Shown here piece after piece: positions 32,298-59,531 of a DNA stretch of 64,000 nt. The notes below the pieces were generated by a model. It saw nothing but the letters and a program-made list of their open reading frames with translations, ran no database searches and was not told where the DNA came from. The translations under genes and the position numbers were made by a program. This stretch comes from Psammoneis japonica (taxonomy: Eukaryota). Numbering within the stretch: the stretch's first letter is position 1; every line of letters starts with the position of its first letter. The DNA lies in NCBI GenBank assembly GCA_008632985.1, contig QPGO01000060.1, positions 186,001 through 250,000 on the forward strand. Reading direction: 5' to 3'.

Positions 32298-32986
32298 GGA
32301 GAAGACGATACCATATAATGCTATAGTGTTTTGGAAGGAGGAGACATCGTAATGTGTACGGTAGTCCCGTGTATTCTCGACATTCTAGAGTCCTCTACGT
32401 GCTACGTTTAATCTTCTCCTCATAGTCGTTGACAACGGTAGCGTGCAGATGTCAGAAAAGACAAACAAAAACACACAAGATGTTGATGCGAAAACAGGCG
32501 TTGACCAGCCAAGGTACATATGGTAAATCGTTGTGCAGCAACCCTTCATAAATTATTGAACCCGACATTGGCTGCGCCCAGAGTTGCTGCATGCACCATC
32601 TTGGGAGTTTTGGGACACATCTTGTGTGTGCTGATCGCAAGGGAAAGGGCCGCATCAAACGGAGTTGGCAACATTCAAAAACACACTTTCTGGATCTCCA
32701 CATGAGTGGCTGGAAAGTTCCTGGAATTAAAAGTGCTTGTCAGGCCAGGAAAAGCAAAGACTGATCAATTTGGGTAAGATGGTGGTGCAGACAATGTTGT
32801 AAAAGTGGTGAGTCCAGCATTTTTGACAGCCACCAAACAGCCACAAAATGAGAAGAGGCAACAACAAGAACCATCATTGTGGCAGGTGCAGAAGATGGTG
32901 GGGGAAGCACATGGATGAGGGTTCAGCAACTGCAGTCCAGAGTCAAATGTGGCAGTTGCATCAGGGGGCATTTTTTGGCACTCTTT

Positions 32987-33023
<37 letters not shown>

Positions 33024-35250
33024 TTTAGACCAACAATTGGCACCATTCCACAGTCCCTGGCAGGACATCTCTCTCCTGATGCCCAGCGGTGTGCCGCCTC
33101 TCAGTTGGGAGCATTCTTTGCAACTCTGCAAAGTTTTGCACCACCCTCCACACTGTCAGATTGCAGCATGTGTTGTTTGCAATTGCTGTCTGAAACAATT
33201 GAGCAGTTGCAAAAATGTGCAGTGTGTTTGCTCTGCCAGAGAAAAGCCTGTGTGGGCTGGTGCTGGAAAGCCAGAGAAATTGTTTTTGTGCCAAGTTGCA
33301 TTTTTTGCATGCAACATTTCACAATTTTTGTCTTGTTGAGGTGCGTGCAGTGGAGTTGCTTGCTGCTGACTGCCAGATTCACATGGAGGGGCTGCTGCAA
33401 GTTGTTTCTCATTGTAAATTGGCACTCTCACAGCCGCCGATCCCTGCGCATGCCATTGTTTGTGAGTGGCCTCATGGGAGCTCTCATGGTGCACAACCAT
33501 CTCTTGGAGCACACCAGCACACCCAGTGTGCCAACAGGAGTGTCATGAGCCTGTGATGATGGCATGCTGACTCCATTGCAAACTCATGGCTCATGTGTTT
33601 TCTCACCACGGGCAGAACACAGTGAGAAATGTTCAGTCTGAAGAAATTGTCATGCAAATCACGACGCAATGACAAAATGGTTGAATTGCAAGCATGTTGT
33701 CTTTGGCCGTGTCGAACATGGAATGCAGGTTGTCAAGAAAATTGAAGCCATGGGCAGTTCCAGCGGTAAAACGGCACAACCCGCGGTGATTGCGGATTGT
33801 GGAGAAATCATCACGGGCAAGAAAAAGACCAATTGAGAAGAAGACAACACCATAAAATGCTGCAGTGTTTTGGAAGGAGGAGACATCGTAATGTGTGTGG
33901 CAGTCCCGTGCATTCTCGTCATTCTAGAGTCCTCTGCGTGCTGCGTTTGATCTTCTCCTCACAGTCGTTGACAACGGTGGCGTGCAGATGTCAGAAAAGA
34001 CAAACAAAAACACACAAGATGTTGATGCGAAAACAGGCATTGACCAGCCAAGGTACATGTGGTTAATCGTTGTGCAGCAACCCTTCATAAATTGTTGAAC
34101 CCGACATTGGCTGCGCCCAGAGTTGCTGCATGCACCATCTTGGGAGTTTTGGGACACATCTTGTGTGCTGATCACAAGGGAAAGGGCCACATCAAATGGA
34201 GTTGGCAACATTCAAAAACACACTCTCTGGACTTGCACATGAGTGGCTGGAAAGTTCCTGGAACCAAAAGTGCTTGTCAGGCAGGGCAAAGCACAAACCA
34301 ATCAGTTTGGAGGGAAAGATGATGCAGACAACATGGTGCAAAAGCAGAGAGTCCATTTTAGACAGCCACCAGACAGCCACAAAATGAAAAGAGGCAACAA
34401 CAACCACCACCATTGCAGCAAGTGCTGTGGAAGGTGGTGGGAAGCATGCAAATGAGGGTTCAGCAACAACAACAGCCCAGAGACAAATGGCGGTTGCGCA
34501 TCAGGGGAGATTTTTTGGCACTCTTTGCAGCAGCAGTGGCATTTTAGATTTTAGACCAACAATTGGAGTGCTGAAGCAACCAGAGCCAGTGCAGAGAAAT
34601 CATCATGCACCACTCCACAGTCCCCAGCAGGACGTCTCTCTCCTGAAGCCCCAGCATGGTTCACCATTTCTCAGTGGGGAGCATTCTTTTTTGCAGCTGC
34701 AAAGTTTCGCCCTCCACACTGTGTCAGGTTGCAGCATGTGTTGTTTGCAATTGCTGCCTGAAACAATTGCAAAAATGTGCAGCATGTTTGCTCCACTGGA
34801 GAAAAACTTGCGCTGCTGGGGGGCTGGGTGGAAAAGAGGAGAGATTGTTCTTTTTGTGCTGAGGAGCCGCAACTTTTGTGTGTTCGACATTTCGCCACAA
34901 CTCCTCTTTTCTTGTTGGTGTGTGCTGCAGTGGAGTTGCTTGCTGCTGACTGCTGAGTTCATGTGGAGGGGCTGCTGCAGCAAGTTGTTCCTCATTGTGC
35001 ATTGGCATGGTCTTTACAGCCACGAATCTCTGTGCCTCGTTCTCTTGGGTGGCCACGCAGGATGACGAGGAGCTCTTGTGCACAATCATCTCTTGGAGAG
35101 CACACACCCAGTGTGCCAACAGGAGTGTTGTGATCCTGTGATGATGACTGGCATGCTGACTCCATTGCAAACTCATGGCTCGTGTGTTTTCTCACCACGG
35201 GCAGAGCACAGTGAGACATGTTCGCATCACATTGCAAATTTCACGACGAC
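32139..35250. repeat. Tandem duplication of about 1.54 kb: copy 1 about 32139-33675, copy 2 about 33675-35250, including a pseudogenic copy of the cyclophilin 3' end
   Basis: AAATGGTTGAATTGCAAGCATGTTGTCTTTGGCCGTGTCGAA at 32139 and 33675. Colinear to CTCACCACGGGCAGA.CACAGTGAGA at about 33602 and 35191. Confidence 0.93.
32988..33020. repeat. (CAG)11 microsatellite
   Basis: Direct reading; only (CAG)3 at the matching position of copy 2 (about 34528). Confidence 0.95.
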
Positions 35251-35531
35251 GAGGCGTGAGGCAACAAAAAAACAGCCGCGCCAGCTGCTGACTGACAGAC
35301 TGACAGAAGGATTTACCTGCGTGGCTGGCTGGCTCGCTTCCTGGCATCGCGTCATGATGACTTTTTGATTTATATATATTTATGCTTGAATATATTCTGT
35401 ATTCTCGTGCGTTGGGCAAGCACGAACAACGCTTTTCATTGGCGAAAATCCTGGTACACATCACCCGTTGATTTGTACGTCGTAGACACTGGTGACGTTT
35501 CGAAAAATGCCGCACAACATCACATCGCACC

Positions 35532-38500
35532 ATGGCGGCGGCCACAAGCAGCATGACTACCACACTGATACGTACCGAACCACATCGTCGTTTAGTGCCA
35601 CATCATCATCATCATGCGTATTCACTAGATGGTGATGATGATTGCAGCACTGATGATTATGAGGAAGAAGAGGAAGAACAGCTCTTACCTCCTCCTCAAT
35701 CGTGGTTTGCAGAAGAATCGGATTCGGTTGATGAGTTGTTTGACGACAACAATCAAGAGGATTCTTCTTTTCCACCAACAAACAATGTGGTGTATTATGA
35801 ATCCAAACATGACGATGAAACAAATAATTTGAGTGCCGTCGTGGGTGCACCGGCTCGGGCACCGTCTTGGAAAGAATTGAGTTTGCAGGTCCTTCCGGCT
35901 GCCGCACGCGAACTCTTGTCAAATTCCATGAGACGTGCCTATCATTATTCACTCGTTTCGTATTCCAAGGGACGATGGACACGTCGGTATTCGGAACTTA
36001 CCAACAATACCGGTGGGTATTTTCGGAATAATAGTTTTTCCATGGGACAAGAAAACAACAACAACAACATTCCTCTGCCACCCTTTTCGAGTTTGCCGTG
36101 GGTCGATCGACAGTTGGTTGCGGAATGGCGAACGTGTGATTTGACCTTTGATTCTATCAAACAAGAACAACAAGAGGACGAGGATGATGACGAGGATGAT
36201 TTTGATCGTGCCCGAACGCTCGTACCGAAACCCATTGCCAAACCGACGTGGGCCAAAAAGGAAGTTTGTTTTGAATGCCACAAACCCTTTGGTCCAACGT
36301 TGTTACGACATCACTGTCGTTTGTGTGGTAAATCGTATTGTCAATCCCACTCGTCTCAATCACATCGTTTGCCCCATTTGGGGTATGACGCACACGTACC
36401 GGAACGCGTCTGTGATGTGTGCAAGAGCTTGTTGTTGGAACAGAATTTAGCCGAACGCGTTGCGTGGCGACTCGCGCGGTGTCGGGATTATCTCGACAAT
36501 CATGACGAGTTGACACCCTACTTTGAAACGGGCGTCGACACAATGGAACAAGTGGCGGCCCGCGTCACACGTGCCGCCATTTCCATGGCACGGTCCATTC
36601 CGTTGGGTGCACAAGCGCATGTGGCAGTCGAAACGGTCGATGTGTTGCGCAAACACGGACTCAAGGGTATATATGGATTGATATTGAGAAAGGAATTTTT
36701 GGCAGCGGCCGATTTGTTGTGTCGGGCCCTAGGCATCAACAAGACGGCGTGGCCCCTGTCGGTACACGAACTGAGTGCCGCCATTTTTTATGCTTTGGCA
36801 CAACACCGTGCCATGCGGGGGATGAGTCCCGAACGGGAATACTTGATTCATGCGTATAAAAGCAAGCAAGATGATGTGACGGAAAAGGACGAGAGCAACG
36901 AAGAAGAGTGGGGTCCGTTTGTTTCGGCTTGGACTGGTAGTTCCCATAAGGATGGAGTCAATGGTGATCAAAATCAGGACGATAATGTTGTTGACCCAAA
37001 CAACACAACCTTGGTGGATGAAACCGACACGTACGATCCTCTGGCAGAAAGCATTGTGGATTTGATCGCCATGGCGGACAATGCCATTCAGTCACACAAC
37101 AATAGCAATCACGAAAGCAACAAGGAGCAATCCTCGGATTCAGCGACACCTCCCGACTTGCCCTTTACTCCCGTCTGTGAATTTGTCCCGGACCCCGTCA
37201 TGTCGTCACTTATTTTCTACGCTCCCATTGCTCTCAACTTTGTCTATGCGCTCCGTGAGGTGGATATGCAGCTCTTGGCGGCACAACAGGGTTGGAGACT
37301 CTTGTACGCGCACTTGGAACAAGACACGCTGGACCGGCCCGCGTCGGCCCTCTTTGTGCATTCCCGACAAAAAATCGCGTGCTTTGCCGTTCGTGGTACC
37401 GCCACCATTAACGATGTTGTAACGGACATTCGTCAAATGCCCATTTCCTTTCCAGAAAATAACATCCAAGACAATCATGAAGCAGCAGCAGAAGTTGATG
37501 ATTGGACACCGGTGTTTCGAGGACAGGGTCTTGCCGTTTGTGGAATGGCAAGAGCGGCTGTTAATTTGTATCGAGAACATATTGATGCCTTGGTGACGTT
37601 GGTGGAACGTGGATACCGGATAAGAATTACTGGCCATTCACTTGGTGGTGGTGTAGCGACTCTTTTGGGTGCGTTGGTTTTACGGCATATTGAAAGCGCA
37701 GCCAATCTTGGTGATACACTGGGACACGCGGCGGCTATAGATTCTCATGCACCCTCCAACAGTGTCATTGTACAGCGCAATGATCTTTTGCGTGTGTATG
37801 GCTACGGAACTCCGTCTTGTGTGGATGCCAAGCTGTCAGAGTATTTCAAGACATTTGTCACAACGGTCGTCTTGCACGATGATGTGGTGCCTCGATTGAC
37901 GCCGACGAGTATCAGGGGACTGCTCAAGCATCTCTTGCACATTCGCGAAACGTGGGTCAAGGCTCACTTGCAGAACGATTTAATGGCAATCACGGAACGG
38001 GCTCGAACCGTGTGGGCCCCCAAGTGGAGAGGCAGTTTTACCATTTCCAAGTCGTCCTCGAAAAAGTTTAAACGGTACTGTCGGAAACAAATGCAAATTG
38101 GCAAACGCAAGCTTTTGACGGTAAAAGGTCAGCTTGTGAAAAGTATAACGGAAGATGGTAGGAGTAGTGATGACAGTGATGGCAAGCCAGAAGAGGACAA
38201 TGCGAAATCGGAGAACGGTGCTACTGCTAGTTATCCGAGTGCGACGACGACGTTCTCTCCCACAGAGTCGGACGAGTCTGATGGAGTATCCGATGGCTCT
38301 ATTGACAAATGCGACCCTCAAGTTGAGGCGAAAATGCAGGACCTTTCGTTTGAGTCTGACCCGGAAAGCCGAATGGATTCTCCTCCTGCGGCTCATCTCA
38401 TGGTGGATTACATGGGTGGAATCGATTATCGTACAGAAGGCGTCGTGATTGACGGTGACGAATTCTTTGATGCCGATGAATCGTTGGTAGAAAAAGACGA

Positions 38501-39768
38501 AGACGTTCAGTTACCAATGTCGGAGGATAAAAGGGAGGATGCAGATGATCCTTTATTTCCGCCTGAGGCGTTTCCAGAGCCAATGACGCAAGAAGATCCA
38601 GATACTCCGACCGAGGGAAGTGACGATAAAGATATACCAATTGCCCCAATGTCTACTTCTTTCAATACGGAAGACGGGAGTTGGGCTCGTTTTGATACAT
38701 CCTCAGATGCAGATACCGCTAACGCAGAAAGTGGTGCCAAATCAACTAAGACAGAAGCCGAGGCATTCGGTATGGAATCTGAGGGCTTGGAGGAAAGTGA
38801 CGAGAATGTGGGTGTCATGCTTGAGGAAACGCCACTTCCACGCATGTTTTTACCAGGAAAGATTGTGCACCTTTATACCCATCGTGGAGGTTACAAAGCT
38901 GCATATGTGCCTCGCGCGTTTCGAGAGCTTCGCCGCATTAGCTTGGCCGGAAATATGCTCTCGGATCACACGTCCAAGGCATACTATGAAGCTTTACTCG
39001 AGGTGCAATCGGTGAGGAGGGCGGAAGAAGGTCTCCCCAGGTGGACCGCTTTTGACGAGGACGACACATGGTGAGTACATTGCGGAGTCTTTGTGTTTTA
39101 CTGCTTCGCACTGTGATAGTCTCAACAGCTTTTGCTCGTCAACCCAATTGTAGCTCCTGTTGTGCAAGCAGATTCACTTGGGCTAGTACCTCGGACAGTG
39201 AAGCCCAAGAAGCTCGTGACAAGCACAAGTAAGTACAGCCGCTGCCAGGAATGAAGATATTCTGGAATAATCTAATCTCATTGCTCATCCTTTTTCTCTC
39301 CCGTGCCTCAGTTGTCGCTCATGTGGTACTTTGGTACGTGTGTCTTGTTTGAAATCTTCGATGCTGCGTCTTTGTAACGGTATGTTACTCATTGCCGGCC
39401 ATTGATTTTCTCTCTGCCAGGTGTGCAATCCTTGCGCGTCGAATCGGATTCCGTTGCCTTCGGTTGGAATAAACGTCCCCGTCCGTGTATGTGACAGGTG
39501 TTACAATGACATTGGGGGAGTTTTGACTGGTCCTTATGCTCTGACCAGTAGCTTTATGGAGTCTGGTGAAGCTAGTCATAAAACACCTGAGCAAGACAAG
39601 AACTGTCAAGCGAAACTTTCTGTTGATCTGGAGAGCACACCACCACATTTCGTTTCTGTTGACAAGAGGAATGAAAACCAGCAACCCGAAAGAAAACGAG
39701 AAAGACGCAGCCAGGTTGTGGATGAGCTGGCATCGCGTATCAACTCGCTGAATTCTACTATGTCGTGA
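35532..39768 (+). CDS. FYVE domain / class-3 lipase / FYVE domain protein; exons 35532-39070, 39154-39228, 39312-39333, 39421-39768
   Basis: FYVE (CFEC..F..RHHCRLCG..C..RVCDVC), lipase (AVRGT, ITGHSLGGG, DVVPRL). A second FYVE is assembled in frame across three GT-AG introns (CSCC..KHNCRSCGTLVC..RVCDRC). Confidence 0.92.
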
Positions 39769-40306: not shown

Positions 40307-40488
40307 TGTAAGATACGAAACAAATACCTAAAGGAGTGCCACAGTCAATCGTAGCCACTCCAGACCAACAACACGGCAGCGACCGTGAGAGCCATCTTTA
40401 TGCAAGACATGAAACAAATGCCTAAAGGAGTGCCAGTCAATCGCAGGCACTCCAGACCACCAACACGGCAGAGACCATGAGAGCCATC
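40307..40488. repeat. About 90-bp tandem duplication of the C-terminus and 3' flank of the Cys-repeat gene
   Basis: 40307-40396 aligns with 40401-40488. Confidence 0.9.
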
Positions 40489-41899
40489 ACCATGTGGACG
40501 GTAAGGAACCATCTGCCGGCAGCACCCGAACCACCACCACCACCTCCTCCGCCACAATTGAAGTCCTCGCACAAGTCTCCCGTCACACAGTCCAGCATGG
40601 CAGAGAGCTGGGCTCCACACTGAGGACAGCACTCGCTGGCAATGGTGGTACACATTTGCTGGACATCACCACATGTGTCACTGTCCAGGGCACTTCCCGT
40701 GCAGTCTTCGTCAGCGTTGGGACACTCGCGAATGACACATTCCGTGTACAAGCGAACGCTCTCGGACATGCAGTCCAAGGGAAGTAGGAAGCGAGGGACG
40801 TCGTTGAGTGCCGGTTCTTCTTCCAAGAGACGGCGGGTGACATTGTCGCCGCTGCAATCAAACGGAGGACAAGCATCTCCGAGAGCACAACCCATGAGCC
40901 ACGCCAGGTCGCATGAGCAGTCGGGGCAGCATTCTGCCGAGATGGTGGTGCAAATGCCCTCCACGTCGGCGCACGTGTCTCCATCAGGGGAGCCGCCCGT
41001 ACAAACGGCATCGGCGTCGGGGCAGTCATGGAGGAGACACTTGGAGTGGCTCCACACGGATTCTGACACACACCTCAGTCCGTCCGAAGGCTTTTCCGGA
41101 CAGGTGGAGTCAGGTGCGGGAGCGGGCGTGGATGGAGACGGAGGGGGGGTCGTTGCATTTGTTGCATTGCCACCGCACACAAAGCCCCTGCAGGCGTCTC
41201 CAGTGGCACAGTCGAGCACAACAGATGGCTCCGTTCCACACGAGGGGCAACATTCGCTGGTCATCTTGTTGCACATGAGCTGGACGTCATCGCATGTGTC
41301 TCCGTCCGGGGCGTCTCCGGTGCACATTTGATCAGCGGCAGGGCACTCTCGAATGACGCATTCTGTGAAGGCCCGAAGGCCCTCGGAGAGACAATCCAAA
41401 TCTCCAAGGGCTTGGAGGAAACGAGGCACTTTGTCGTCGACGGCGGGCGTCATCATGTCGCCAGAATGATCCTTCTCAGGCAAGAGATTGCGTGTGGACG
41501 TCTGGTTGCCGCTGCAATCAAACGGCTCGCAAATGTCTCCGAGAGCGCAATCCATGAGCCTGTTCAGTGCAAACAATGAGTGAGGCGGTGCTTGTTCACG
41601 ACTGCGACAATCGATTTGTTTGCGTGCCATGCCAAGTCACACTTGCAGTCGTTGCAGCATTCACGAGCAATGGTGCCGCAAATGTCTTCAGCATTGCTGC
41701 AGTCGTCCCCATCCGGGGAACCGCCGGTACAAACGGCATCGGCTTCGGGACAATCGTTGATGAGGCACTTGGCACAGTTCCAGACGGACTCGGAAATGCA
41801 CCTCAATCCACTCACGTCACGATCCGGACACTGTTGGGACACCACTGGCGAGGGCAAAGATACAAGCCCCACCACGAGAGCGGTGGTTTTGATAATCAT
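40437..41899 (-). CDS. Secreted, probably GPI/membrane-anchored protein with four Cys-rich repeats; exons 41899-41628 and 41559-40437; possibly pseudogenising
   Basis: Signal peptide MIIKTTALVVGLVSL. Repeats C.SE.V....C.I..CP.AD..CTG..PDGDTC.DV...C..I.SECCP.C. Gly linker plus hydrophobic tail. A 68-nt GC-AG intron restores CDLAW|LMDCALGD, matching repeat 3. Confidence 0.75.
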
Positions 41900-45508: not shown

Positions 45509-46529
45509 GAGAGGGGCCGCTTGATGGATTGGGTCTGGGTGTCAAAAAACAAAGATGCGATGCGAACCCCCTCTTTTGTAAAATGTCATGAACACTGACA
45601 AAAACCAAAATGTCGTCGTTTTTCCGTTGTACTGTATCTAACTGTCGCGAACTCATGAGATCAGCCCACTGTTGTGGAGGAAGTCCACACTCATCATAGC
45701 GATGTGATTGGCCACTGCCACTCAGCAAAATTCCCTTAATCTCTGCTTAGAATTTCCTTTCCAAGCCGCTGAGATTGCCAGAAGTGACAATTGTTGCACC
45801 CTTTCAATGCCCAACCCATGACCCATCCTGTTGTGCAGTGTGCAGCCAAGCCGCAAGCAAGCTCTGTGTGTCATGTGTCCAGCAACAAGCTCACTCCTGC
45901 AAAAATTGGTGATGCACCATTGGGTCACATCTTGGGAACATGCAAGGGGCATGGGAATGTCAAGGCAGGCAAAGCTCCTCAACTGCACAGGTCAAACAAT
46001 CTCTCCCTGCACTGTGCAGCTCCTTGCATGTGCAGCATCCAATGCCAGCACCCGACAACCTCCCATGCAGCGGTCTTGACGAACCACTCAGGCAACTGAA
46101 CATTGCCACAAATGTGTCCCTGAACAACTTGTTCTCTTCCTTGGAAGTTTCTGCTCAAGTTGCAGCTCTGGTGTTGCCGTTTGCACTCCTTTCCTGTTGC
46201 TTTTGCCTCTGCCGAGTCGGCTCTCCTGTGCAAGGGCTCCGTCTGACAACACATGTTTGAGTTGTGGTGGAATGGCAATGCAATGATTCTTGCATTTTTG
46301 TCAATGCAAGAAGGAGCCTCTACATCAGAAGTTGATGACTGCTGTGAGTTCATGAAAAAGGTGGGGTTTAACCCACGAAAAAGGTGGGGTTTCTTCAACC
46401 CACGAGTGCAGAGGAAGACCACACACACAGTGCAGCAAGTCCTTTCCAAGCCACTGCAATCACTGGTCATGCTGGTCATTGCAGCCTTTCAATCTCCAAC
46501 TGTCCAACCCACCTGTCCTTCATTCCAGC

Positions 46530-49500
46530 CAAGGGCAGTTTAGATGCATGCAAGCTGACCCTTGTCAAACTGAGCAAGCTCTGTGTGCACACAACGAGTG
46601 AGGCACTCCCTGCAAAAAATTGGCAATGCACCATCATTGGGGGTCACATCTTGGGAATTGTGCGCAGGAGCAGGCATTGTGGGGTGGTGGACGGAGATGG
46701 AGGAGGGGTCATCACATTCCCACCCACCACACATGAAGTCCCCGCAGGCGTCTCCAGTTTGACGTCTGCGGTCTTGACCTCCAAGCTGTGCAGAGCTGCT
46801 GGAGTGAATGCAATCCTGACAATCTTGTGGGACATGACACTGGCATGTGTCAGTGTTGCCAGGGTGTCTGTCATGCCAGCATGCCCACTGGCTGTGTGGC
46901 ATGCCTTGTGCCTGAAGTCTTGAAGTTTTACATCAAACACCAGATGGCATCTGACATGCTGACATCCTGTCAGCTCCTCCTCATCTGTCAATGACTTGGA
47001 ACGCTTTCCAAATGACTCCTGTTTCCTTGTCAATGGTGAATTGCCACTGCTGGTCACCATTGGACTCATCAATCTTGACTGCCTCATTGCACATCTTGGG
47101 GGTGCACATGCTGCACTCATGCGCGCACTTGCAATGTCACTTGTTCACTGCAGGAATGATTCGCCTCCTCTTTCTGAGGGCAAAAGGGACCCACTGTTCT
47201 CCGCAGATTGAGACATGGCACACTCAGCCAGTTCAACAGGGTTGGACTCTTTGAGGTCTGCCAGATGTTGCCATGAAGTTGTGCCATCCTTCCAACACAC
47301 ACAAAGGTGCCATCCTTTGGTCATCTTGCAGATGGGCTGTCATCCTCTGCTGTCCTGAGTAAAGTCATCCTCCTTTCTGACTGTCACACTGGGCAAACAT
47401 GTCTTCAGCTGTGACATCAGCTGCAAATTCCACCTCCTGACTGTCAGGAAATTCTGTTTTGTGCACACGAGTGTCAAGGATGGGGTTGGGGGGTTTGCTC
47501 TGCCAACTGGTGTTCCATCTGGGTTGAGCTCACATCTCATCACTGTGCCTGTCTGCTGTTTGTCCCCATGAGGTGGCAGCACCTCAGCATTGTTACAGGC
47601 ATTGAATGCTTGATCCAGGACATTGTTTGCATCTGGTGCACACTTGCCAGAACATCCTGCTCCTCCTTGTCTTTGCATGGATTGAAGGCAGGGACAATTA
47701 CACTGGGATCATTGATGTCCCTGATTGTCATGCCAGGTCCTAATTTGGTCTCTGTCAATCCATTGAACTTTTCATGCAATGCCAAATGTGTCTGGTGGTG
47801 CAGTTCCTCAGGAGTCAGAGATCAATGGGAGGAGCAGTGGACTGCTTGTCCATTGGTCCTTCAACATCTCAGCCATCATGGCTGGACCTGCATCCCGGCT
47901 TGGACCCAGGTGTCACCCTGGGACTTCTTTGTCTTCAGGGAATGGGACTGTGGTGTCCCCAAACATGACCCAGTTGCACCAGGCAAGCTCACAAACATGC
48001 GAGATGTCTGCCATCTGTCTGGACACAATTGTTTCCAGGACTTCACCATCAAGTTTGAACATGTCATGAACAGCGTTGGATTGGACAAGAGCTTCAAGCT
48101 CAAGGCAGTTGTCCCAAAGACATTTGGGGGCTTGTGTCTTTGCTGTTTTGCATCCATGCCATGCTTGAGTTTACAAACAGTGCCCTCTGTGGCATTCAAC
48201 CATGGAGCACATGGTTCAGTTTGTCCAATGTGGCAATCTGACTCCCTGGCTTTGGCATTGAACTGCCCCAATGTCTCCTCTTTAGCTCTGTCCATGATCA
48301 TTGTGTGCTTGTGTGCAAGATGTTTGCTCTTCAAGGGACAAGCACATGCCCATCTGTTGGACATGCCAAAAACCTGGACACATGTGTTCCCTGTCTGGAC
48401 TTGACCAAGGAGAATGTGGTGTTGGAGTGCACATCCTTCGAATTGTGCCTGCATCATAGTTGATGATCATTGGTCCTAAACCAATGCAACAAGGTTGGGT
48501 GGAGCACTGTCCAAATGCCACATTGAGCAGTGACCTTGACAGCATTCTTGGCACACTTCAAACTGACAGACCAGTTCCTGGCCAGCTGTTCAGCATCCAC
48601 TTGCTGTCCCCTTTTCGTCATCTTGAGCAAAAAGAGGCCAATGGAAGCAAGCAGCATGTGGTCATTACAAGCATTCAAAATGCCATGCAGCATCTGGTTT
48701 TCCAGACAGTCTGAGGCTTCTTGTGCCACCGTGCACAAGAGCTTTGTGCTCATGATTTAAATCTGAGGACCCGCATTATCCCTGGTCTCATGGATGTGGC
48801 CAAGTAGATCTGTCATGGCGTCCTCCCTGGCTTGACAGTCTTTTGCCTGTGAGTCTCATTCTGGGGACTTACAAGTTGGTTCATGAACTGTGCCATCCTG
48901 CACAGCTGCCTCACATTCAGAAGTGGTGGGTTTGGTCACAGGGAAACAGCTGGTGACTCAATGAAGTTCCAATGGAATGGTCAGTGTGTCCCTGTCCACA
49001 GAGTCTGGACTGCTGCTGCATGTGACTCATCATCGGGCTTTGTTGTCAGCAGGAATTCAGGTTGCAGTTTGACTCCCACATGATTCAGCCACAATTGCAT
49101 TGGGTGCAGAAGGTTGTGCTCTGGGTGTGGCATGTGCACAGCCTGGTGGATGACCAGGACATGTTGGTGGCCCGTGCTGGGGTCTGTGTGCATTGCAGCC
49201 CAACTGATGGCACACAAGCTCTTGCTCGTACCCTGCATTGGGTCACACCCTGCAACATCTGCTGGACAATCATGGTCAAGCAGTGTTAAAGCCAAGCATG
49301 TTTTCCCAATGCGCTCACATCTGCATGACCATCTAATTCAGTCCATGCTTCTGTGCACACATGTCCCAACATTGCTGTCTGAGTCATGTGCAGGGTCTGC
49401 AATGGACTGAGGTAGAGGACTTTTGGGGGAAAGAGATCATTCAGATCCCTTTGTCTTGGCCTTCTTCTTTGCTTTCTCCTCCATGCTCTTCTTGAGCTCA

Positions 49501-51050
49501 GCCCTCTTGTCCTTTGAGTGCTGGAAGTTGGAATGGCAGCCAATGCGATGCTTGACAGTGGGTGGACATTCCTCTGTCTTGCCAGCAGTGTTGTCCTGCT
49601 GGTCCTCAACATGAGTGACAACAGCTGCAACTGCACTCGTGAGGACCTTGATTTGTTTGGCAGTTTCAGCTGAACCATCTTTCCTTGGTCGCCATGTGCA
49701 TTGCAAAGGCTCCTGAGCATCTTGCGGGCTTTCAGAGACATTTTCTTGTGCTCCTTGGGAGGGTGGTGCTTGTCTTCAACATCCATGGCATGGACAACAT
49801 TGCACTTGCATCTTAGTTTTAAGAGCAAGCTGCAATGCAGAGCTTCCACAAGTTGCTGTTGGGCTTGAACTGTTTCAAAAAGTCCTTGAACAGGACTGTG
49901 CATCTCTCAAAGTCAATGTGGCAGTTGGCATTGGCCATGATCTGTGCCTTTTTGACCAAGTTAAGAGCAGGGTCCTTCATGCTCTCAAAAAGATGGCACA
50001 CCTTGGAGCACTTGTCAATTCCCACATGGTCACAATGCTCGAGTCCTTCAAGGACAGTGTGTTGCTCAACATGAACATGTGCGCACCACTCAAAATTCCA
50101 ATTGTGTCATTCTCCACTGTGGGAGAGTGAAGCCAAGCACTTCTTGGCCGCCATGGCCACATTGTCAACATTGTTGGGCCCAAGAAAGTGGTTGTGTACA
50201 AGTTCAGGCAGGCTGCCCTGCTGTTCTGATTGCATTGAGCCTTCTTTGCATGGGCCCAGGTTGAATGCTCCCATGCAACCAATGATGTGATGTCCCAGAC
50301 CTTGATGTTGTTGGTGGCAAAGGTCGTTGCAGGCTGAGGGTTGTCTCTGGTGGCAAAGTGTGGTGCTTGTGCAATCATTTTGGCACAGGCATTGGTGCAG
50401 CTGGTGTTGTCATTGTTGGCTTCTGGTGGCACCATCTGGTTCTCGTGGATGATGCACGCAAGCGGGACATCAGTTTTCCCATGGCACACCCACAGATGCT
50501 CCTTGATTGACTCCATTGTCTTGGGCCAGCCCTTGTCTGTGACAGTGGGTAGAGTTTCTGGGCTCTCACAGACAGTCTTGGCTGTCTGCAGGTGTTGCAG
50601 ACCTCTGACACAGTTCAGAGCAAAGTCTGTTGCATGCAACGTGCATGAGATTCACTCACAGTGATGAGTGGAGAAAGCTGCAAGCTTGAGGTTTGTCTCA
50701 GCTTGCAAGGATGCAGTTGTTCTGAAGAATGACTGAGGTGCACTTCAGAAGTCATCTTGGAGCAAGCTTGTTTCATTGCTTCCCAATGAAGTGTCTGCAG
50801 CAGCCAGCATTTGAGTCCAGGACCCATCAGAGGTGGTCCTGCAAGAACGTTTCTTCTTGTGCAACCCAAAATTCCTTCATTCATGTTGCAAGTGCATCAG
50901 ATGCAAAGCAGCCAGTGCCGGTCATTGCAACATGGGAGAACTTTCAGATGTTGAAGGTGGGCACTGCAACATCATCAACATTTGGTCATGAGGGCCACTT
51001 GTGCTCTCATGCAGAGAAAAGTGCCTTGGGTTGAGCTCTGCATTTTTCCA
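46530..51050 (-). mobile_element. Old degraded Copia (CoDi-like) retrotransposon, 3'-truncated
   Basis: gag (WPKTMESIKEHL..HGKTDVPLACII), protease (ELDGHAD), integrase (QTEPCAPWLNATEG), RT start (CHLVFDVKLQDFRHKA). Many stops and frameshifts. Confidence 0.85.
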
Positions 51051-51106
51051 TGAACTGAATTCATTTGTTTTGGACTGAACAAATGCCAACATGCTGTCAC
51101 AAACAC

Positions 51107-54100
51107 AGGCAGCCATTTGCTGTTGACCATTTGCCCACTGTCACTGAAACAGTGAACAACCCAGTGGCACACTGATGCACAATTCTGGAACCTGTCGATG
51201 CCACTCAACACTCAGTCTTGTCATTCACACCAATTCTCAGCTGTCAAAGCAGTGTTTGTTCACTTTGTCAGAGCTGCTGCACTGTGATGTTCATGCACCC
51301 AGCAATGGCATGATGAACACCATGACAGTGTTGTTGTGATCAATCCATTTTTGTGGCAAGCACCATGTTGGTCCTGTCATTGCTTGCACAATTGCTGAGT
51401 TTCACAAACATGAACCAAATGCTCTAATGGGGGCCAGAGCAGTGATCCATTAAACTCACTGTTGGAGTTCAATTTGTTTGATCACATGAGTGGAATGTGT
51501 TGTTTGATCACATGAGTGGAATGTGTTGGCCAAGACATGCAAACATTTGCAACATGATGTGTGCACAAATGTTGCAGAATGTCAAAGTTGTTGCATGAGG
51601 ACATGTGTCTGTCAGGGAATTGTCAGTTTTGCATTAAATGCTGCAAACAATGACGATGCAAACAGGTGACCTGACATGCCCGTGGGTTCACCAGTGGAGT
51701 TTGCTGCTGCAAGCTGAACACCACACAAATCTCCACTCACACAAGTGGGCGCTCATGCATTGAAATGGGAACAACACATGAGACACCATGGTGGCTGCTG
51801 CATCCTTTGCTGCCACTCTTTTGCATGTCACAGACATGACAGCCAGATGAGGCAGCTCATTGCCAACCATGGTTTTGCCAGTGTCAAGGACCTGGAACAG
51901 GTCCCTCTTGCAAAGATCAGCAAAATGCATGAGGGGATCATGAAGGCCTTGGATGTGGCTGCTGGCCCCCAAGTCCAATTTCTGCATCTTGCAAACCCAA
52001 AGTTCAAGGCTTTGTGCTTGTGGGCAGACCAAGGAGCCTGAGAAAAAGAGACAATGCCGGCCATTTTTGTGGGCCAAGTGGATGGTGTGATTGACTGAGT
52101 TAGAACAGCTTAAGTTGGCTGACTCTGATGACAACACAAAGAGTTTGTTGAGCTCAGGCACTCATGAAATTGGCCCACCTTTTAAGAGTTGTTAGAAACC
52201 AAGCTCTGTCATCACCACAGCTCAGTCATGAGCATTCCTCCAATCCACCTCATGAGGGAACACAATCAGGTCATGGCAGAGATGTTGGCTGCAGACTGCA
52301 ATGCAATTGACCTCAACTTGGTCACTGTCACATGGCTGGAGGGAGCACAGTGCATGCAGGATTGCAAGCATCTGCATGGCTTGTTAAAGAAACCAGTTGT
52401 CAAAGGGCCTGGACAAGCATTCATCAAGCCATTGATCCACACTTGTGATGCCACAGTGCATTCTTTGCCTTGAAGAGGCAGGTGGAAGAGTTGGCTGCTG
52501 CCAGCTTCAGCAACAAGAACATGTGCACACACAAATTGCCACTGCCAACCACACCAGATGGGGTTGATGCACCATTGACCAGTGAACTCAATGCCGCCAG
52601 AAGGCTCACAATGACCTGCTGGAGCCAGGTGAGCCAGTGGCTGAGACCAAGAAGGTCTCTGACTTTGTCAAAGGCATCCCTGACCCAAGGCCAGAGATGG
52701 GCAAGAGCACAGTCAAAATGAAGACAACTCAAAGCTTCAAGGCAGAGTTTGTAACATCATGCACACACCATGCAAACAGAAGGTTTGGGAGAAAGTCCCT
52801 TGGCTTAAGTTCCCTGCTGCCAAGGGATGACTCTGTTCTGACCAGATGTTTTCAAAGGTCAGATCAATGCATGGTGGGGCAGGAGGCAGCGACTTCACCA
52901 ACAGAAGAGGGCATGACAGGTTCCATCCTTGGAAAGGGAAGCAGGACCACCCAGATGCTGCCATCATGTTCTTTGTGCATGATGTCAGCATGCCACAAAC
53001 CCTTGTGTTGGATGGTGTGCCAGAGACAACCAAAGGCCAAACCAAAGGCATTTGCAAAGAGCACAGGACACACCAGGAGGTGATGGTGCCATGTGGCCTT
53101 TGACAGAACCCAGCCAAGGTGTCCATTCATGAGTTGAAGAAAAGAGTCCAAATGACTGTACACTGAACTGGCTCACCACAATGTTTGTGGTCCTGCTGTG
53201 CTCAATGGGCATTTGCTGTTCATTGTTTTGTGGCCTCAAACATGTCCAAGATGAGAGGATGGGCACCCGAGGAGGAGACCCTGGGTTCTGCACCTGACAT
53301 CTCACCTCTCTCCTCATTTGACTGGTGTCAACCTGTTTGCTGCTGCGTGCTTGTGGTGGAGTTTCCACATGAAAAGAAGTGCATTGGTCAATGGCTTGGA
53401 GTGGCCAAGAACTCATCATTTTGGAAGGATGTGTGGGCTGCACCAGGGGACAACCTGAAAACACTCCAGCTGTCCAAGTGGATCTTGCACCAGTCAATCA
53501 GGCCCTGATCAAGAGACCAGGCAACCCTGAAGGGGGGACACTGAGACTGAATTCCCCAAATCTCCAGATGATTTGATGGACAATGATTGGGATGACCCCT
53601 GTGGAGCCCATGGAGCTGGACTCAACTTGACAAGAGGCAGATGAGTGCACCACAGAGGGGCCAGACAAATGTCTCACTGCCCAAGTTGTGCCACCATGTG
53701 GTGGTGAATTGACTCATGCCAGGGTCATTGCCCTTAATCATGACAGTGACAGTGTCCCTGTGGGCATGAGAAATGATGACCCTGTCCAGGATGTGTGTTG
53801 CCAACACAATTGCAGAAAATCTGTTCTCTCAGATTGATTCTGAGGGCAATGTGCACCAGATCATGAAAGAGACAACCAATCACCAAGTGATGCTTGCACT
53901 GCAAAGGTTGACAATGGTTGCATTGCAACTGGGTCTGGTCAACAAATGCCTGAAATGATGACCACAGGCTGGGATCTGCAGGTCAAAAGGAAGGGCAGGA
54001 TGACACCCCAGGTTCTTCTCAAGGATTTGAGGGAATCTCAAACCCAGTTGAGGTGGCTGAATGTGCTGCAGGAAACAAAGCAGCCAGCAAACCAGCCTTC

Positions 54101-55453
54101 AACTGGTGGCTCCATGATGTCTTACATTGGAGGACCAGGAACTTGAAGAAAGTCAAGTTGTGTCACTGGAAATGCATGCACAAGCACAAGTTCAGAACTG
54201 AACTCCCAAAATCTGTTGAGGAAGCCCCAGATGTGGGCAACAGAATGGGGGCTGACTTTTGGTCCAAGGTCACAAACAAGAAAATGCAGAATGTTGTGCC
54301 CACACTTGAACTCCACATTGACAATGCTGTGCCAGTCAGGTGCAAGCATGTTGACTGTCATGTGGTCTTCAACATTGAGAGCAATCTCTGACACAAAGCA
54401 AGATTTGTGTCTGGAGGCCACCAGACTGATCCAACAAAGCAATTGACTTCTTTTGTGTGGTGTCACACAGCAGCATGAAGATGGCTTTTGCTGTTGCAGC
54501 TCTCAATGACCTGGAGGTCTTGAGCGCCAATGCACAGAATGTCTGTCTGAAGACATTCACCAAGGAAAAGTGTTGCACTGCTGCTGGACTGGAATTTGGC
54601 AAGCAGAACAAAGGAAGGCCAGTTGTCATTGTCCAAGTGTTACATTGACTCAAGTCATCAGGTGTGGTGACAACTTTGCATGATGCTTGAGTCATGCAAA
54701 GTGGATCCAGATGTCTGGATGAGGCCTGCTGTCAAGTTGGACAGCCTCAAGTGCTGGGAACATGCACTCATCCACATGGACAATTTACCATGCATCTCCC
54801 ATGAACCTCAAAAAGTTGTGGATCACATGAGCTCTGGGTGCACATTGGAGGACGGAAGTGTCTGCAAACTGGAGGAGTGCATGGGTGCACAGATCAAAAA
54901 GTGCCAGCTGTCTGTTGCAGATGGTGAAACACACTTGGCCATGTTCTCTGACTTGCATGTCAAAAGGGCATTGGCCAATGTTGAGCCAGAGCAGAAAACT
55001 GACAGGTGCCTTCCAACGAAAGTGTCAACACCCTTGAGCTTGGGACACAGGCCTGAACTGGACAGTTCACCACAGTTGAATGCCAAAATGGCCAACTGCT
55101 GTCAAGGCCTCTCATCAGAGTGCTCAGGTGGGTGGTGGAGCTTGGGCAGATTGATGTTTTTGTTGCCATCTTGCTCATGTGATCCCACCCTCACAGCACC
55201 ACATGTGGGGCATCTGGATGAGGTGCTCCACATCTTCCTCTGCTTGAAGGCCCACTCCAGGTCTGCACTGGCAATCAACAACGCTGAGCCAATCTTCTGC
55301 AGGCAGTCATTTGCTGTTGGCAATTTGCCCACCATTGCTGAAACAGTGAACCCAGCAGTGCACTGATGCACAATTCTAGAACCTGTTGATGCTGTTCAAC
55401 ACTCAGTCTTGTCATCCACACCAATTCTTAGCTGTCACAGCAGTGTTTGTTCA
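51107..55453 (+). mobile_element. Second old degraded Copia (CoDi-like) retrotransposon, internally deleted, bounded by about 155-bp direct repeats
   Basis: Direct repeats 51107-51262 and 55301-55453. RT motifs PAFNWW, ELPKSVEEA, CHVVFNI, VDPDVWMRP, HALIHMDN (decayed YVDD region), HRPELD. Confidence 0.8.
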
Positions 55454-56145
55454 AAGCAACATGGCACCCACCTGCAGTCCTGAGCAACATGCCCGGCACC
55501 TCCCTTGGTTGACCATGTCCCACAACTGTGTCCATTGTGATGGAAGTTTTGTTTGGGAATGGAGTGTCAGTGCTGCTGAGCATCACTGTGGTGCAATGGA
55601 CAATGCCCTTTTGCACTTCTCATTTGATGAGTGTGAAACTCCATTGCGGAGTTGTCAAACTTGTCTAAAAAAAAAGAGACTTGGACTTGGCGTTGGGGAT
55701 TCTGAAGAGGATGGAGTAGACCGGGAAAGCAGTGCACGACATGTGAAATGGCGCACACTGGTGTTGAAAGAGACATTGCAATGCAACGGCAATGATCTGG
55801 AGGGCACTGATGCCAGAGAAGAATGCCCCACACTCAGCTGCTTGGAAGCAGTCTCTGCTGGTGTGGATGGTGATGAAGGAAAGACTGCAGTGACCCTGCC
55901 ACGGTTCTTTCGAGCTAGAAGCAGCTTTGCAGAGACACATTTGCGACATCCGAAGTTGGTTTCAGGGACAGAGACCTGGACAATCAGGTTTAAATCTGAA
56001 ACGCATCACTGGCCCTGGTTGTGAATTTGTCAACTGGACTGGGTTGTTGAACCAACGAAAGTGCAAAACAATGGCAAGTTAACTCCCCAAATGGTCTCGC
56101 AGCTTCCATCGGTTGGCAGACTGCTCGATTTTCATCAACGACCAG

Positions 56146-56870
56146 TCACTTTTGGCGAATGCTGGCCCCCAGGTTCACAGCAGAGATTCCCAACCTGAAA
56201 TCAGAATCAAATAAGAGCTCGCTTTTTCTCTTCCTTGGAAGTTCGTCTTCGAGTTGCGGTTCGCATTCCTGTTGTCGTTGCATGTGAAGGCGGTTCCCGC
56301 GAGGATCGCCGCAAAAATGTTGGACTGTCATCAAGCAATGTGTCCTTTTCGCTACCCAAGCTTTTTAGAAAGGGACTCTATGGCATTTGTTGCCCAGTCC
56401 TCATCTTCTTCCTTTCCATTTACTGGCGCTGCTCTTTGCATGTCAAACACAACAGCTTTTACTTCGCCATTTTCCTCGTAGATGCCCACATTCCGCCAAG
56501 CTGTGTCATCATGGCGCAAACCCTTATTTTTGAAATCTTCTGTCAGCATCAACTTCACGGCAGCCACTTCTTGCTTGGTTCGTTCCGGACATTGAAAACA
56601 AGGCATCAACAACACCATTGCCCCCACAACTGTCACAATTCGAAGACTGGAAACCGGTGCAAGATGCGAGCATGCCCTTTTCCACATTCGCTCTTCGTGT
56701 AACGCCTTACGATCAGCATCCTTGTGGAAAAACTTCAAAACGCCCACACCTCCCTTTGTACCACCAGAAACAAGGAACGCCCTGCCATCAGCGCCAGTTC
56801 CAAAATCGTGGTGTTTGAAGCATCAAAAAATGATGTGCAGCTCCTCCTGCAGCAGTCTAACAGCCTGGAT
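56146..56870 (-). pseudogene. Protein-kinase-like remnant
   Basis: GLRHDDTAWRNVG..KAVVFD resembles a catalytic loop plus DFG region. Fragmentary and TpA-poor. Confidence 0.5.
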
Positions 56871-57329
56871 GAAGTGGGAAACATGAGCCATTTCAAAAAT
56901 TTCAAATGTGAGACCTCAGCTGGAGTGGTCTAACAGCCTGGATGATGAAGTGTGGGAAACACGAGCTGGAAGATCCATCCTTGCAGGTCATCCATGATTT
57001 GACTCACTCATGAACCAATCTTCAAATCACCAATCCATCCAACCGCCAACTCTTAGACTTGCTGTTGCTTGTTGCACTCTTCTCTCTTCTCTGCATCTGA
57101 CTGAGCCTGTGTGCAATTTATCACAAGAACAGATCATCATGGAGTCACCTGTCTCTGAAAGCACTCCCCTCATCAGTGCCAACAACGGCACTGCAACAGG
57201 AGTCAAAGTCCCAGTTGCTTCTTGGGAACATTTGATTCCCTGTTGTCACTGTCTAAATCATCTGCCACATCTGCCCCACCACCGGCATTTGCTCAGCAGC
57301 CAACGATTCTTTCTGAATTGCCACGAGCA

Positions 57330-58330
57330 TTCTCAATGCAATGGACGACGACAAGCTCTGCAAGGCTGTCATGGCCCACAACGTGTTTGCTCATGCTTCC
57401 CCTCAAAACAAGATTTGTGTTGTGAAGGCCCTCCAAGCCAAAGGACAGGTTGCCAGCATGACTGGAGATGGAGTCAACAACGTGTGAGTGCTTTGACTTC
57501 TTTTTTTTTTCTCTTGTGTCCTTTTCTCTTGGGCTGCACTTTCTCACACTCTGTTCCATTGTTTCGCACTCGACTTTCAGTCCTGCTCTCAAGGCCGCCA
57601 ACATGGGTGTTGCCATGGGCAAAAAGGGAACCAATGCAGCTTGTGAAGCTTCCGAGATGATTCTTGCCAACGACAACTTTGCCACTGTCATCACCGCCAT
57701 TTGTGAGGGCCGCACTGTGTGGGACAACCTCTGCAAGGTGTTGTTGGTGAACACTCCCATCAACAAGTCTCAGGGTCTCTCCATTCTGTTTGGTTTTGCT
57801 TTCAGCCTTGAAGATGCCCCATTGATGGCCATTCATGTGTTGGGCTCCAACTTGATCTGTGCCATGACTCTTGGATTGTGTGCCCCGTTGAGCCTGCAGA
57901 AGATGGTGTCATGAACATCCCTCCTCACCGTGTTGGAAAACACCTCATTGGATGCTGCCTCTTCCTCCGTGTTGCTCTTGGAACCATTGCGTTGTCTGCT
58001 GCAGTTGTTGGATTGTCCTTTTGGGCTCACTCTCTTGACTGCACTCTTGAGGAACAGTGTGCCCAGGCCTTCAACACCTTGGACTTCGGCGCCATTGCCA
58101 TCACTGCAAGTGCTTGTTTCACTTGCAACAGTTCCATCCACCCCCACATTTTCAAGGGCAACATGTCTCTGTGGCATTCCGCCATTGTTGTCATTGTGCT
58201 CCAGCTCTTCACAACCTGCACCCCCAGTTTGAGACACCATCTTTGGCATGTCCGGCATGGATGGAACCCAGTGGGGCGTTGCCATTTTGATGATGGTTTC
58301 CGTCTTTTTTTGATCACATTGCACATGCCA
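57330..58330 (+). pseudogene. Degraded fragment of a P-type cation-transporting ATPase gene (intron retained at about 57484-57580)
   Basis: [29 protein letters not shown] | [42 protein letters not shown]. Frameshifts; N-terminal domains absent. Confidence 0.88.
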
Positions 58331-58388
58331 GGGAGAGCCTTGTGGTCGGCCCAGAGAACAAGTGGGCAGGAACAGAAAGGTGCAGTGA

Positions 58389-58736
58389 TTAGAAGGGTTT
58401 GAATTGAGTCACACTGATGTTTCCATTGCAGAGCTGTCCCACTTTCCACTCACCACAAAAGCCGAGTTGAGATCGAGCAATCCTCGCTCCCATTGCCTGC
58501 TGACCAGCAACAACCTCGCAATTGTCAGCAAAATTGCAATCACTTCCAATTCCTGCCTGAGTCCTGGTTGGCTCATGAGCCACAGCAGGAGCAGCCACAA
58601 GTGCAGCAGCCAGACCTGAGGCAATCGCTTCTCAGCGAGACGCCATGTCCAGTTTCACCGAGGTGCGTGCAGCATGCTTGGCAGGTGCAAAAGCCACAGC
58701 AAGCAGCACCATCACAGCAAAGAAAAGAAACTTCAT
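58389..58736 (-). pseudogene. Pseudogene of a plastid/thylakoid-lumen-targeted protein
   Basis: MKFLFF..VAFAP presequence, then SR*EAIASGLAAALVAAPAVA. The TGA is plausibly a CGA, which would give a twin-arginine signal. Confidence 0.55.
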
Positions 58737-59531
58737 GACAAAGAACACTGGGGGTTTGATGACAATCAGTTCAACAAATTGTGGAAGTGGGTTTTGGAGG
58801 TGGTGCAGATTGTGAGAACTCTGCCAAAGGTGCTCTGATGCGACATCTGTCAAAGGCCTGAACATGCGAACCCCTCTCGGAGAATCTTTTGTGCTCTTCT
58901 TGGTGTTGATTGCTGGGTCTCATCACACAAAACGACTTCAAAGTTGATGTGCGGCTTCGCATGCTGTAGATCCGTTGTCAGCCATAGAATGCTGCGGGAG
59001 AAACACACTGTGGTCTGTGGGATTGACGGATGAAAGCAAGACTCAGAAGATCCGGGTCTTTCAATTGTACCATGAAACGTAGAATTGTACATACATTGTC
59101 TGTGTTAGACCGACTCAGAGGGACAGTACACCCAATTCCTGAGGGACACGACACGCATACAAGTGCCATACACAGACACATAATCAATCGCACACAACAC
59201 GCACAATTTCCAAGGGACACGAAACCCTCACAAAATTTCACCAAGTCAATTTGCACGCAGCAAACTGCAGCAGCACGATGATGCGAGCCGCCGGTGTCCC
59301 ACTTTACGGCGTGATATCTCAATGATACTTTCACCGATTTTCCCGTTGCTTGTTTCATTCTTAACATAAATTGTATAATTCATCCAATGAGCTTGATTCC
59401 ATTGTGTGTCATTGTGAATTATGGATTTCTGTTTTGTTTGAAACCATGCAGCAATTTCAAATTTGGAGAAGCGCGCACTAAGGAAAGCGTGTACGAAGGA
59501 TCCAGGTTGTGCAGTATTTCGATTCCCAATT

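Follow-up and report, generated by a model that had tools for sequence, protein, structure and literature searches.

A block at 45720–58960 of a 64,000-nt stretch of the diatom Psammoneis japonica (contig QPGO01000060.1 of assembly GCA_008632985.1, positions 186,001–250,000, forward strand; hereafter the window) is nearly devoid of the dinucleotide TpA, poor in CpG and rich in TG/CA. The block consists of nested retrotransposon and gene-copy relics, and it raises the question of which process removed the two dinucleotides, in what order, and whether their loss records the age of a transposable element (TE). The initial annotation had proposed two mutational clocks, a faster one acting on TpA and a slower one on CpG. 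We favour, at a probability of about 0.6, a chromatin-guided mutator that changes A:T to G:C at TpA, most likely an adenine deaminase, together with slow decay of 5-methylcytosine (5mC) in the same silenced domains; the two clocks would then give way to a switch-like TpA mutator that spreads and a single slow CpG clock, the two sharing their domains.

All observed/expected (o/e) ratios were symmetrised, and the genome size is 91 Mb. Block 45720–58960 has a TpA o/e of 0.080 (67 sites), a CpG o/e of 0.191 (155 sites), TG/CA of 1.82 and a GC content of 0.495. The blocks at 800–10900 (TpA 0.048, CpG 0.358, TG/CA 1.74) and 21700–25100 (TpA 0.057, CpG 0.297, TG/CA 1.75) are likewise poor in both dinucleotides and TG/CA-rich, as first annotated, although CpG within 45720–58960 is uneven: 0.105 at 45720–55460, 0.55 at 55460–57000 and 0.37 at 57300–58960. 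Five long host open reading frames (ORFs), used as comparison, have TpA of 0.40–0.51, CpG of 0.83–1.10, TG/CA of 1.15–1.30 and GC of 0.45–0.50. The GC content of the block (49.5%) is thus gene-like, and GC scans are blind to the process, as had been anticipated. The companion claim, that indices of repeat-induced point mutation (RIP) would also overlook it, did not hold, because these indices are extreme in the anti-RIP direction: (CpA+TpG)/(ApC+GpT) is 1.90 and TpA/ApT 0.09 in erased sequence, compared with 1.18 and 0.47 in a host gene, so RIP-index scans would miss the signature only if one-sided.

Contigs from a public run, X1, cover 45579–47328, 47301–49278 and 49251–51195 with 7, 10 and 8 differing letters, respectively. 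As they match the same depleted sequence, the TpA and CpG depletion is no base-calling or assembly artefact; X1 is possibly the source sample, and it checks base calls rather than providing an independent biological replicate. Among the 40 differences listed (of 202) between window 45579–55400 and X1, A>G accounts for 25 and G>A for 8 when each is written on the purine strand; 10 lie at TA, 7 of them on the 49 TA that remain in this interval. Provided that X1 represents another strain or haplotype, these differences fit recent mutator activity in an old block. The same 40 differences include 11 of the type AA>AG or GA>GG, none in reverse, and 7 CA>CG.

The direction of change can be read from a gene-fragment relic of a P-type cation ATPase (57336–58316, + strand; PF00689, E 9.7e-11), which includes an intron-like stretch and polarises both mutation types. 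Compared with three paralogs of gene-like TpA and CpG content, it has kept none of 22 TA sites (11 became CA, 9 TG, 1 CG and 1 GG) and 16 of 46 CG sites, with CA>TA at 0/59 sites and T>C at 0/110 TpT and 0/112 TpC; control ATPase paralogs show nearly no TA or CG change of this kind. A duplicated-stretch relic at the edge of the block (58304–59101) has one homologue found in the genome, L057 (L numbers denote loci), with normal TpA and CpG. Relative to L057, TA has become TG/CA at 23 of 34 sites and CG at 25 of 45, with no CA>TA. Between L161, an unhit Copia, and its hit relative L162, there are 128 TA>CA and 127 TA>TG changes with 1 in reverse, and 244 of 309 CG sites are kept. A:T>G:C transitions are nearly confined to TpA and affect both strands; C>T is limited to CpG, likewise on both strands, and increases with age.

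Long terminal repeats (LTRs) place these events after insertion. A full-length but broken young Copia of the window, here assigned to family 1 (12176–19382, − strand; PF07727, PF13976, PF25597), carries 3 TA in its 3' LTR (12176–12371) and 17 in its 5' LTR (19187–19382), and the two repeats differ by 14 TA/CA or TA/TG steps, 1 CA/TG, 1 other transition and no transversion. Across 23 family-1 LTR pairs (4243 nt), 229 changes lie among TA/CG/TG/CA, with 30 other transitions and 13 transversions. The eight youngest family-1 sisters, about 0.3% transversions apart, are split between CA and TG at 188 sites, and opposite outcomes (TG versus CA) occur in 2118 of 5533 copy pairs. Given the paralog polarity, the differences within LTR pairs and the sister sites split between CA and TG, the changes arise in chromosomal DNA, on both strands and independently after insertion. 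Both TpA and CpG end as TG/CA, as the initial annotation had it. ADAR-like editing of RNA or cDNA in the retrotransposon cycle would account for retroelements being the main targets, and ADAR prefers U before the edited adenosine, as noted in the report on Bigelowiella natans (bioRxiv 10.64898/2026.01.13.699255). Such editing is nevertheless scarcely credible here, as is a base-calling artefact, which the X1 contigs contradict: the strands are hit equally (144:150), the two LTRs within an element are not alike, the targets include a host gene copy that carries an intron-like stretch, and the double change TA>CG occurs in only 5 of 1125 cases.

The order of the two losses was examined in 789 de-duplicated 1-kb tiles drawn from the window and from loci picked by TE or gene searches, a TE-biased sample. 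None of the 91 tiles with CpG below 0.4 has TpA of at least 0.35, whereas 225 of the 481 tiles with TpA below 0.2 retain CpG of at least 0.65; CpG loss in the absence of TpA loss never occurs. These tiles support the succession from intact, through TpA-less, to TpA- and CpG-less. Family 1 agrees (32 of 35 rows used; L012, L017 and L024 were left out as short or near-duplicate). Age was approximated by terminal transversions, the transversion distance to sisters being an upper bound on insertion age. In these 32 copies, CpG o/e falls with terminal transversions (rho −0.68, p 1.6e-5), as does the fraction of CG sites kept (rho −0.82; 0.79–0.88 in the six youngest copies, 0.21 in the oldest), while TpA o/e is flat at 0.04–0.22 (rho 0.00). 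TpA in family-1 copies is already spent: the youngest have kept at most 11–25% of TA-type sites (six copies) and 74–80% of CG-type sites. The proposal that TpA conversion is faster than CpG loss is thereby borne out: it comes first and is much faster, and the per-copy comparison of both ratios with transversion age gave an ordering. The window Copia, said to lose TpA only, is indeed TpA-poor and CpG-rich (TpA 0.176, CpG 0.745); however, with a CpG o/e of 0.75 it is already short of about one-fifth of its CpG, 343 of 429 CG-type sites (80%) being kept.

The term clock fails for TpA. A young Copia family, found by a Pfam reverse-transcriptase search, includes copies with TpA of 0.72–0.75 and was scored at 263 TA and 364 CG sites common to three unhit copies. 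Among 16 young copies (0–7 transversions), TA loss spans 0/204 (L165) to 190/261 (L178). Eleven of the 16 were kept, leaving out L150, L153, L154 and L155 (unmatched target-site duplications) and L165 (one LTR); in these 11 copies (1–7 transversions), TA loss ranges from 9 to 73% and shows no relation to transversions (rho −0.25, p 0.45). Two independent, uniform clocks running from insertion, the literal form of the earlier proposal, would explain why over all ages both losses correlate with transversions in a second Copia family (rho 0.63 for TA and 0.74 for CG; 24 copies against three unhit references). They are very improbable given that equally young copies range from untouched to heavily erased, that loss is patchy within copies and that CpG loss follows the patches.

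What replaces a uniform clock is a local switch-on with a gradient and saturation. Pooled over the 11 copies, TA loss runs along the element from 43% in the 5' LTR through 68, 58, 32 and 20% to 15% in the 3' LTR; it is heaviest on the gag side and weakens toward the 3' end, with a negative position trend in 9 of the 11. The 5' flanks of L167, L168, L169 and L171 are TpA-normal, L169 has an intact 3' end next to an erased 3' flank, and L151 is unhit although it adjoins an erased 3' flank; the polarity is therefore set by element orientation, not by the flanks. The nested series of young copies points to a moving front. Biased capture of 3'-intact copies is argued against, as 5' and 3' queries return essentially the same copies. 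The same result tells against a greater number of homologous copies of the 5' part as the trigger: both queries gave nearly the same set of close copies, and the two halves are similar in copy number. A search of the nucleation zone for an internal hairpin or long repeat found only short low-complexity repeats.

The two losses are also coupled in space, which runs counter to the independence assumed earlier. Across the 11 copies, TA loss and CG loss correlate (rho 0.86). In hit bins, defined by loss of at least half of the TA, 1125 of 1442 TA (78%) and 105 of 2075 CG (5.1%) are lost; cold bins from these copies have lost 34 of 1037 TA and 21 of 1306 CG (1.6%), and the difference in CG is significant (p 7e-8). 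T>C outside TpA is raised 3.5-fold in hit bins (88/13900 against 19/10445, p 4e-8), with no rise in C>T outside CpG or in transversions (0.07% per site in hit bins). Within a tract, TpA loss is about 30 times faster than CpG loss, a hand estimate that depends on how the bins were chosen; in family 1 the ratio is 5–9, a lower bound only because of saturation. As CpG loss is threefold higher in hit bins, CpG decay seems to begin in earnest when a tract is activated, and the coupling fits both processes following one silencing state.

Such tight coupling, together with the tiles in which CpG loss never appears alone, could also be produced by a single machine that strips both self-complementary YpR steps (Y, pyrimidine; R, purine), TA and CG, acting more weakly on CG and leaving 5mC decay unneeded. 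This is quite improbable: A>G and C>T are chemically opposite, CpG still falls with age long after TpA is spent, CpG decays by 1.6% even in unhit bins, and Copia relatives from other organisms are CpG-poor with TpA intact (22 of 80 metagenome loci). Alternatively, TpA loss could be a by-product of CpG decay, arising through gap filling by a polymerase eta-like enzyme (WA motif) during repair of T:G at methylated CpG. The shared tracts (rho 0.86, 11 copies) and the off-target A>G seen at AA would suit this route. It is nonetheless improbable, as TA is hit about 40-fold more than AA per strand (39% versus 1.0%), TpA events outnumber CpG events by about 10:1 in hit bins, distance to CpG has no effect, transversions are not in excess and there are no strand runs.

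With the adenine as reference, the sequence hit is 5'-TAY. After correction for intensity, observed/expected loss is 1.1–1.5 for TAC and 1.29 for TAT, against 0.64 for TAG and 0.47 for TAA, and by context 84% of RTAY but 40% of YTAR sites are lost. Off-target A>G shows the same 3' preference, at 1.3–2.4% in AAC, AAT, CAC and CAT compared with 0–0.2% in AAA, AAG, CAA and CAG; CpG in old blocks may be re-created by such off-target A>G. Sequence does not by itself reveal which partner of the base pair is attacked, and the main rival to an adenine deaminase is therefore a thymine-side lesion with the same targeting: a modified or alkylated T in 5'-RTA, left by TET/JBP-type oxidation or arising as a side product of a methyltransferase, would pair with G and thereby yield T>C. 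TAY is RTA on the other strand, modified thymine can miscode, the symmetric and unclustered spectrum suits a deposited mark miscoding at replication, and the genome has several long C5-methyltransferase ORFs. We consider this rival unlikely, as transversions are not elevated in hit bins and the off-target series (5' T >> A, C > G; 3' C, T >> A, G) resembles the neighbour preferences of deaminases known from base editors, although base-editor reviews yielded no passage on a YAC preference.

The favoured chromatin-guided mutator would then work as follows. A TpA-specific activity would act on chromosomal DNA after insertion of an element or duplication of a gene, reading 5'-TAY on either strand and changing A:T to G:C in single events; as only one event would occur at a time, TA would end as TG or CA, after which the site offers no further target. 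On a new insertion the activity would be off; it would then start on the gag side, within the element, and extend toward the 3' end, saturating before about 0.1–0.2% transversions build up. The most likely chemistry would be deamination of adenine, giving hypoxanthine, carried out by a zinc deaminase brought to heterochromatin, possibly as a defence. Meanwhile C>T decay of CpG within tracts would run roughly 30-fold slower, as for spontaneous deamination of 5mC, and continue far longer. CpG loss as 5mC decay is plausible from the pattern of change: TEs of diatoms are described as CG-methylated islands, dependent on DNMT5a in Phaeodactylum (PMC9998398), and the C5-methyltransferase family PF00145 has 27 matches in this genome, with 8 of 8 rescanned ORFs confirmed and several of them long.

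Several observations weigh against a spreading adenine deaminase. Two of the 11 copies, L172 and L178, lack the 5'-to-3' trend; mosaic copies exist (L150, L153, L154 and L170), and some internal conversion may also have taken place in the 11 copies that were kept. The least-hit part of the window Copia is its 5' LTR, so the nucleation point may vary between families. Strand bias is absent: an apparent sense-strand excess of TG over CA in the raw counts disappeared at palindromic contexts (183:167; 144:150). There are no runs either, the same-direction share being 0.539 compared with 0.528 when permuted, unlike the output of a processive single-strand deaminase, and TA loss is independent of the distance to the nearest CpG. 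Nor does G at +2 bring a gain: TACG has an observed/expected loss of 1.39, compared with 1.37 for TACC and 1.54 for TACT, and TACG as the best motif, favoured by direction tallies (72:2; 21 of 26 sites), was dropped after intensity correction. Finally, the zinc-deaminase family PF00383 has nine genome matches, a search that divergent deaminases would escape; we take the nine to be dCMP deaminase, organellar TadA-like, ADAT2-like, RibD-like and guanine-deaminase-like proteins, and as they look housekeeping-type, none of them could be singled out as the mutator.

Beside these enzyme families, L140:313–1785 (− strand) joins a zinc deaminase domain and a 2OG-Fe(II) dioxygenase (DIOX_N, 2OG-FeII_Oxy) in one open frame. 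Duplicated C5-methyltransferase gene copies, some in tandem, are themselves TpA-erased (core TpA 0.00–0.14; L091–L093, L097 and L103 on C297 and C301, L100 and L104 on C28); TpA is normal in L096, L102 and L105, which are disrupted relatives of L087. In a further Copia family, family 2, the 5' LTR region keeps TpA of 0.49–0.81 while the body is erased (L036, L037 and L039, 5' ends); the young family instead peaks on the gag side. Some young copies share flanks on one or both sides (L146/L153/L154, L154/L178, L150/L166 and L170/L173), which may reflect ectopic recombination, alleles or chimeric assembly. The pair L170/L173, which has the flanks on either side and all 76 early changes in common, was considered as one insertion at two stages, yet the unhit part of L170 lacks the transversions of L173; L170 therefore looks converted or chimeric and was not used as evidence.

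The closest known system is that of B. natans, a rhizarian alga, in which Mettrop et al. (bioRxiv 10.64898/2026.01.13.699255) describe mutations in two viral inserts, of which 230 out of 231 were A>G or T>C and every one of these 230 fell on TpA; the rate exceeded background roughly 1000-fold, and the effect was confined to some mutation-accumulation lines. The targets are integrated nucleocytoplasmic large DNA virus (NCLDV) and virophage DNA, with a TpA rho of 0.45 and one insert shown to be single-copy. As in that account, the changes in P. japonica are A>G/T>C almost solely at TpA, yielding TpG/CpA on both strands; local domains of foreign or presumably silent DNA are hit and genes spared; and the process is not constitutive, being on or off between copies here (0–73% loss) and between lines there. 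TpA-poor, TG/CA-rich clusters of B. natans are reported as enriched for TE domains, and an adenine deaminase was proposed there too. By its sequence-level features, the diatom process appears to work like the TpA hypermutation described for B. natans. It differs from the reported case of two viral inserts with partly depleted TpA in affecting multi-copy retrotransposons and host gene copies of a stramenopile, down to near-zero TpA, and flank preference, gradients along elements and coupling to CpG decay do not appear to be reported for B. natans, the words "diatom", "CpG" and "context" being absent from the text. Literature searches, with thin coverage of subscription journals, found no report of TpA hypermutation in a diatom; so far, a TA-specific process of this kind has been reported previously in one unrelated alga only, the rhizarian B. 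natans.

Other known processes match in part. RIP consists of C>T changes, mainly CpA>TpA, that form strand-coordinated runs in a duplicated copy; its trigger is a nearly identical duplication present during the sexual cycle. The diatom process shares with RIP of ascomycetes, as far as its published descriptions go, a dinucleotide-specific transition hypermutation that ruins repeats and gene duplicates after insertion; unlike RIP, it destroys TpA, raises rather than lowers GC, leaves no strand-coordinated runs and can spare copies of 98–99% identity. RIP was accordingly rejected on CA>TA at 0/59 sites, no rise in non-CpG C>T and the same-direction share of 0.539 against 0.528 permuted. The CpG component resembles 5mC decay in CG-methylated diatom TEs as characterised in PMC9998398, with CG>TG/CA on both strands, no C>T rise outside CpG, and slow, age-dependent, TE-concentrated loss; it departs from plain decay as given there in its spatial tie to TpA tracts, methylation being the likely state of these domains here. 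Like the TACG motif described for TadA/ADAT (PMC12255301), the target has T on the 5' side of the changed adenine and C or T on its 3' side, whereas natural TadA acts on RNA stem-loops and requires TACG; here chromosomal DNA is changed, TAT nearly equals TAC and G at +2 brings no gain.

None of 80 environmental (metagenome) Copia relatives has TpA below 0.36, and the 22 with CpG below 0.4 and intact TpA show that outside this genome CpG commonly decays while TpA is retained. As evidence for limitation to a lineage this is weak, because four of the six search patterns contain tyrosine and such assemblies collapse repeats. Viral contigs gave four pattern matches and no relative. The reverse pattern is seen in environmental Copia L252, L256, L257, L261 and L262 (CpG o/e 0.04–0.19, TpA 0.59–0.76) and never in tiles of this genome. 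We tentatively entertain the broader proposal, which we regard as possible but doubtful, that diatoms and chlorarachniophytes share a chromatin-guided adenine deaminase that serves genome defence by acting on double-stranded chromosomal DNA, in effect a natural adenine base editor. In P. japonica it would load inside the 5' part of each retrotransposon copy and travel with the spreading silent domain. The TpA tracts would then record permanently, in the DNA itself, where heterochromatin had nucleated and how it had spread, and a date derived from the CpG:TpA ratio would be that of silencing rather than insertion.

With these results, a TpA mutation process known from a single report on a rhizarian alga extends to a stramenopile; 481 of the 789 tiles sampled there, a TE-biased set, are affected. 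Tyrosine codons are stripped (6 of 1186 codons in the window Copia, compared with 2.7–4.3% in four host ORFs), so TEs are plausibly disabled, and spurious long ORFs arise as TAG and TAA stops are removed. LTR-based ages are inflated: the LTRs of the window Copia differ by 8% without a transversion. The young family series yields testable predictions for the location of the next mutations, for methylated tracts and for the motif of the enzyme. A natural enzyme performing A>G at TAY in chromosomal DNA, if true, would be of interest to the genome-defence and base-editing fields.

The remaining relics of block 45720–58960 (TpA 0.08, CpG 0.19; X1 contigs agree) show its layering. A deeply decayed Copia pol-like relic at 46758–47636 (−), with outer limits not fixed, forms the oldest layer; tblastn gives 31–35% identity to the ORFs of L036/L037, its CpG o/e is 0.07–0.24, a search of the genome for a close DNA relative found none, and 45.7–50.7 kb gave short DNA matches only. 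An internally deleted Copia relic at 51106–55453 (+; TpA 0.04 and CpG 0.04 on its reverse-transcriptase side) retains LTRs at 51106–51262 and 55300–55453, of 86% identity with 2 transversions in 154 nt. Its identity to L035–L040, which have TpA of 0.09–0.21 and CpG of 0.54–0.78, is about 70%, with about 6% transversions.

Elsewhere in the window, the old erased block at 800–10900 (TpA 0.048, CpG 0.36), repeats of which occur elsewhere in the genome, contains a tandem array at 1135–1710 (60-nt unit, about 8 copies, unit differences mainly transitions) and a RING-finger relic at 6899–7753 (−). Open frames of 400 and 704 codons at 1166–2368 and 2369–4483 (+) lack a Pfam match; such long unmatched frames can arise because TA loss deletes TAG and TAA stops. 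The block at 21700–25100 (TpA 0.057, CpG 0.30) is also old and erased. Two further TpA-poor stretches are an erased tandem duplication of about 1.5 kb at 32136–35223 (32.1–35.3 kb; TpA 0.19, CpG 0.42) and an early-stage patch with intact CpG at 40400–41800 (40.4–41.8 kb; TpA 0.11, CpG 0.85). A host ORF with FYVE and lipase domains at 35496–39071 (+; TpA 0.50, CpG 1.10) serves as an unhit control. In the genome at large, the silicon-transporter family PF03842 has 24 matches, five of them near full length, which marks the host as a diatom, and G000:C38:226311-230342 is a single 1511-aa open frame with three silicon-transporter repeats.

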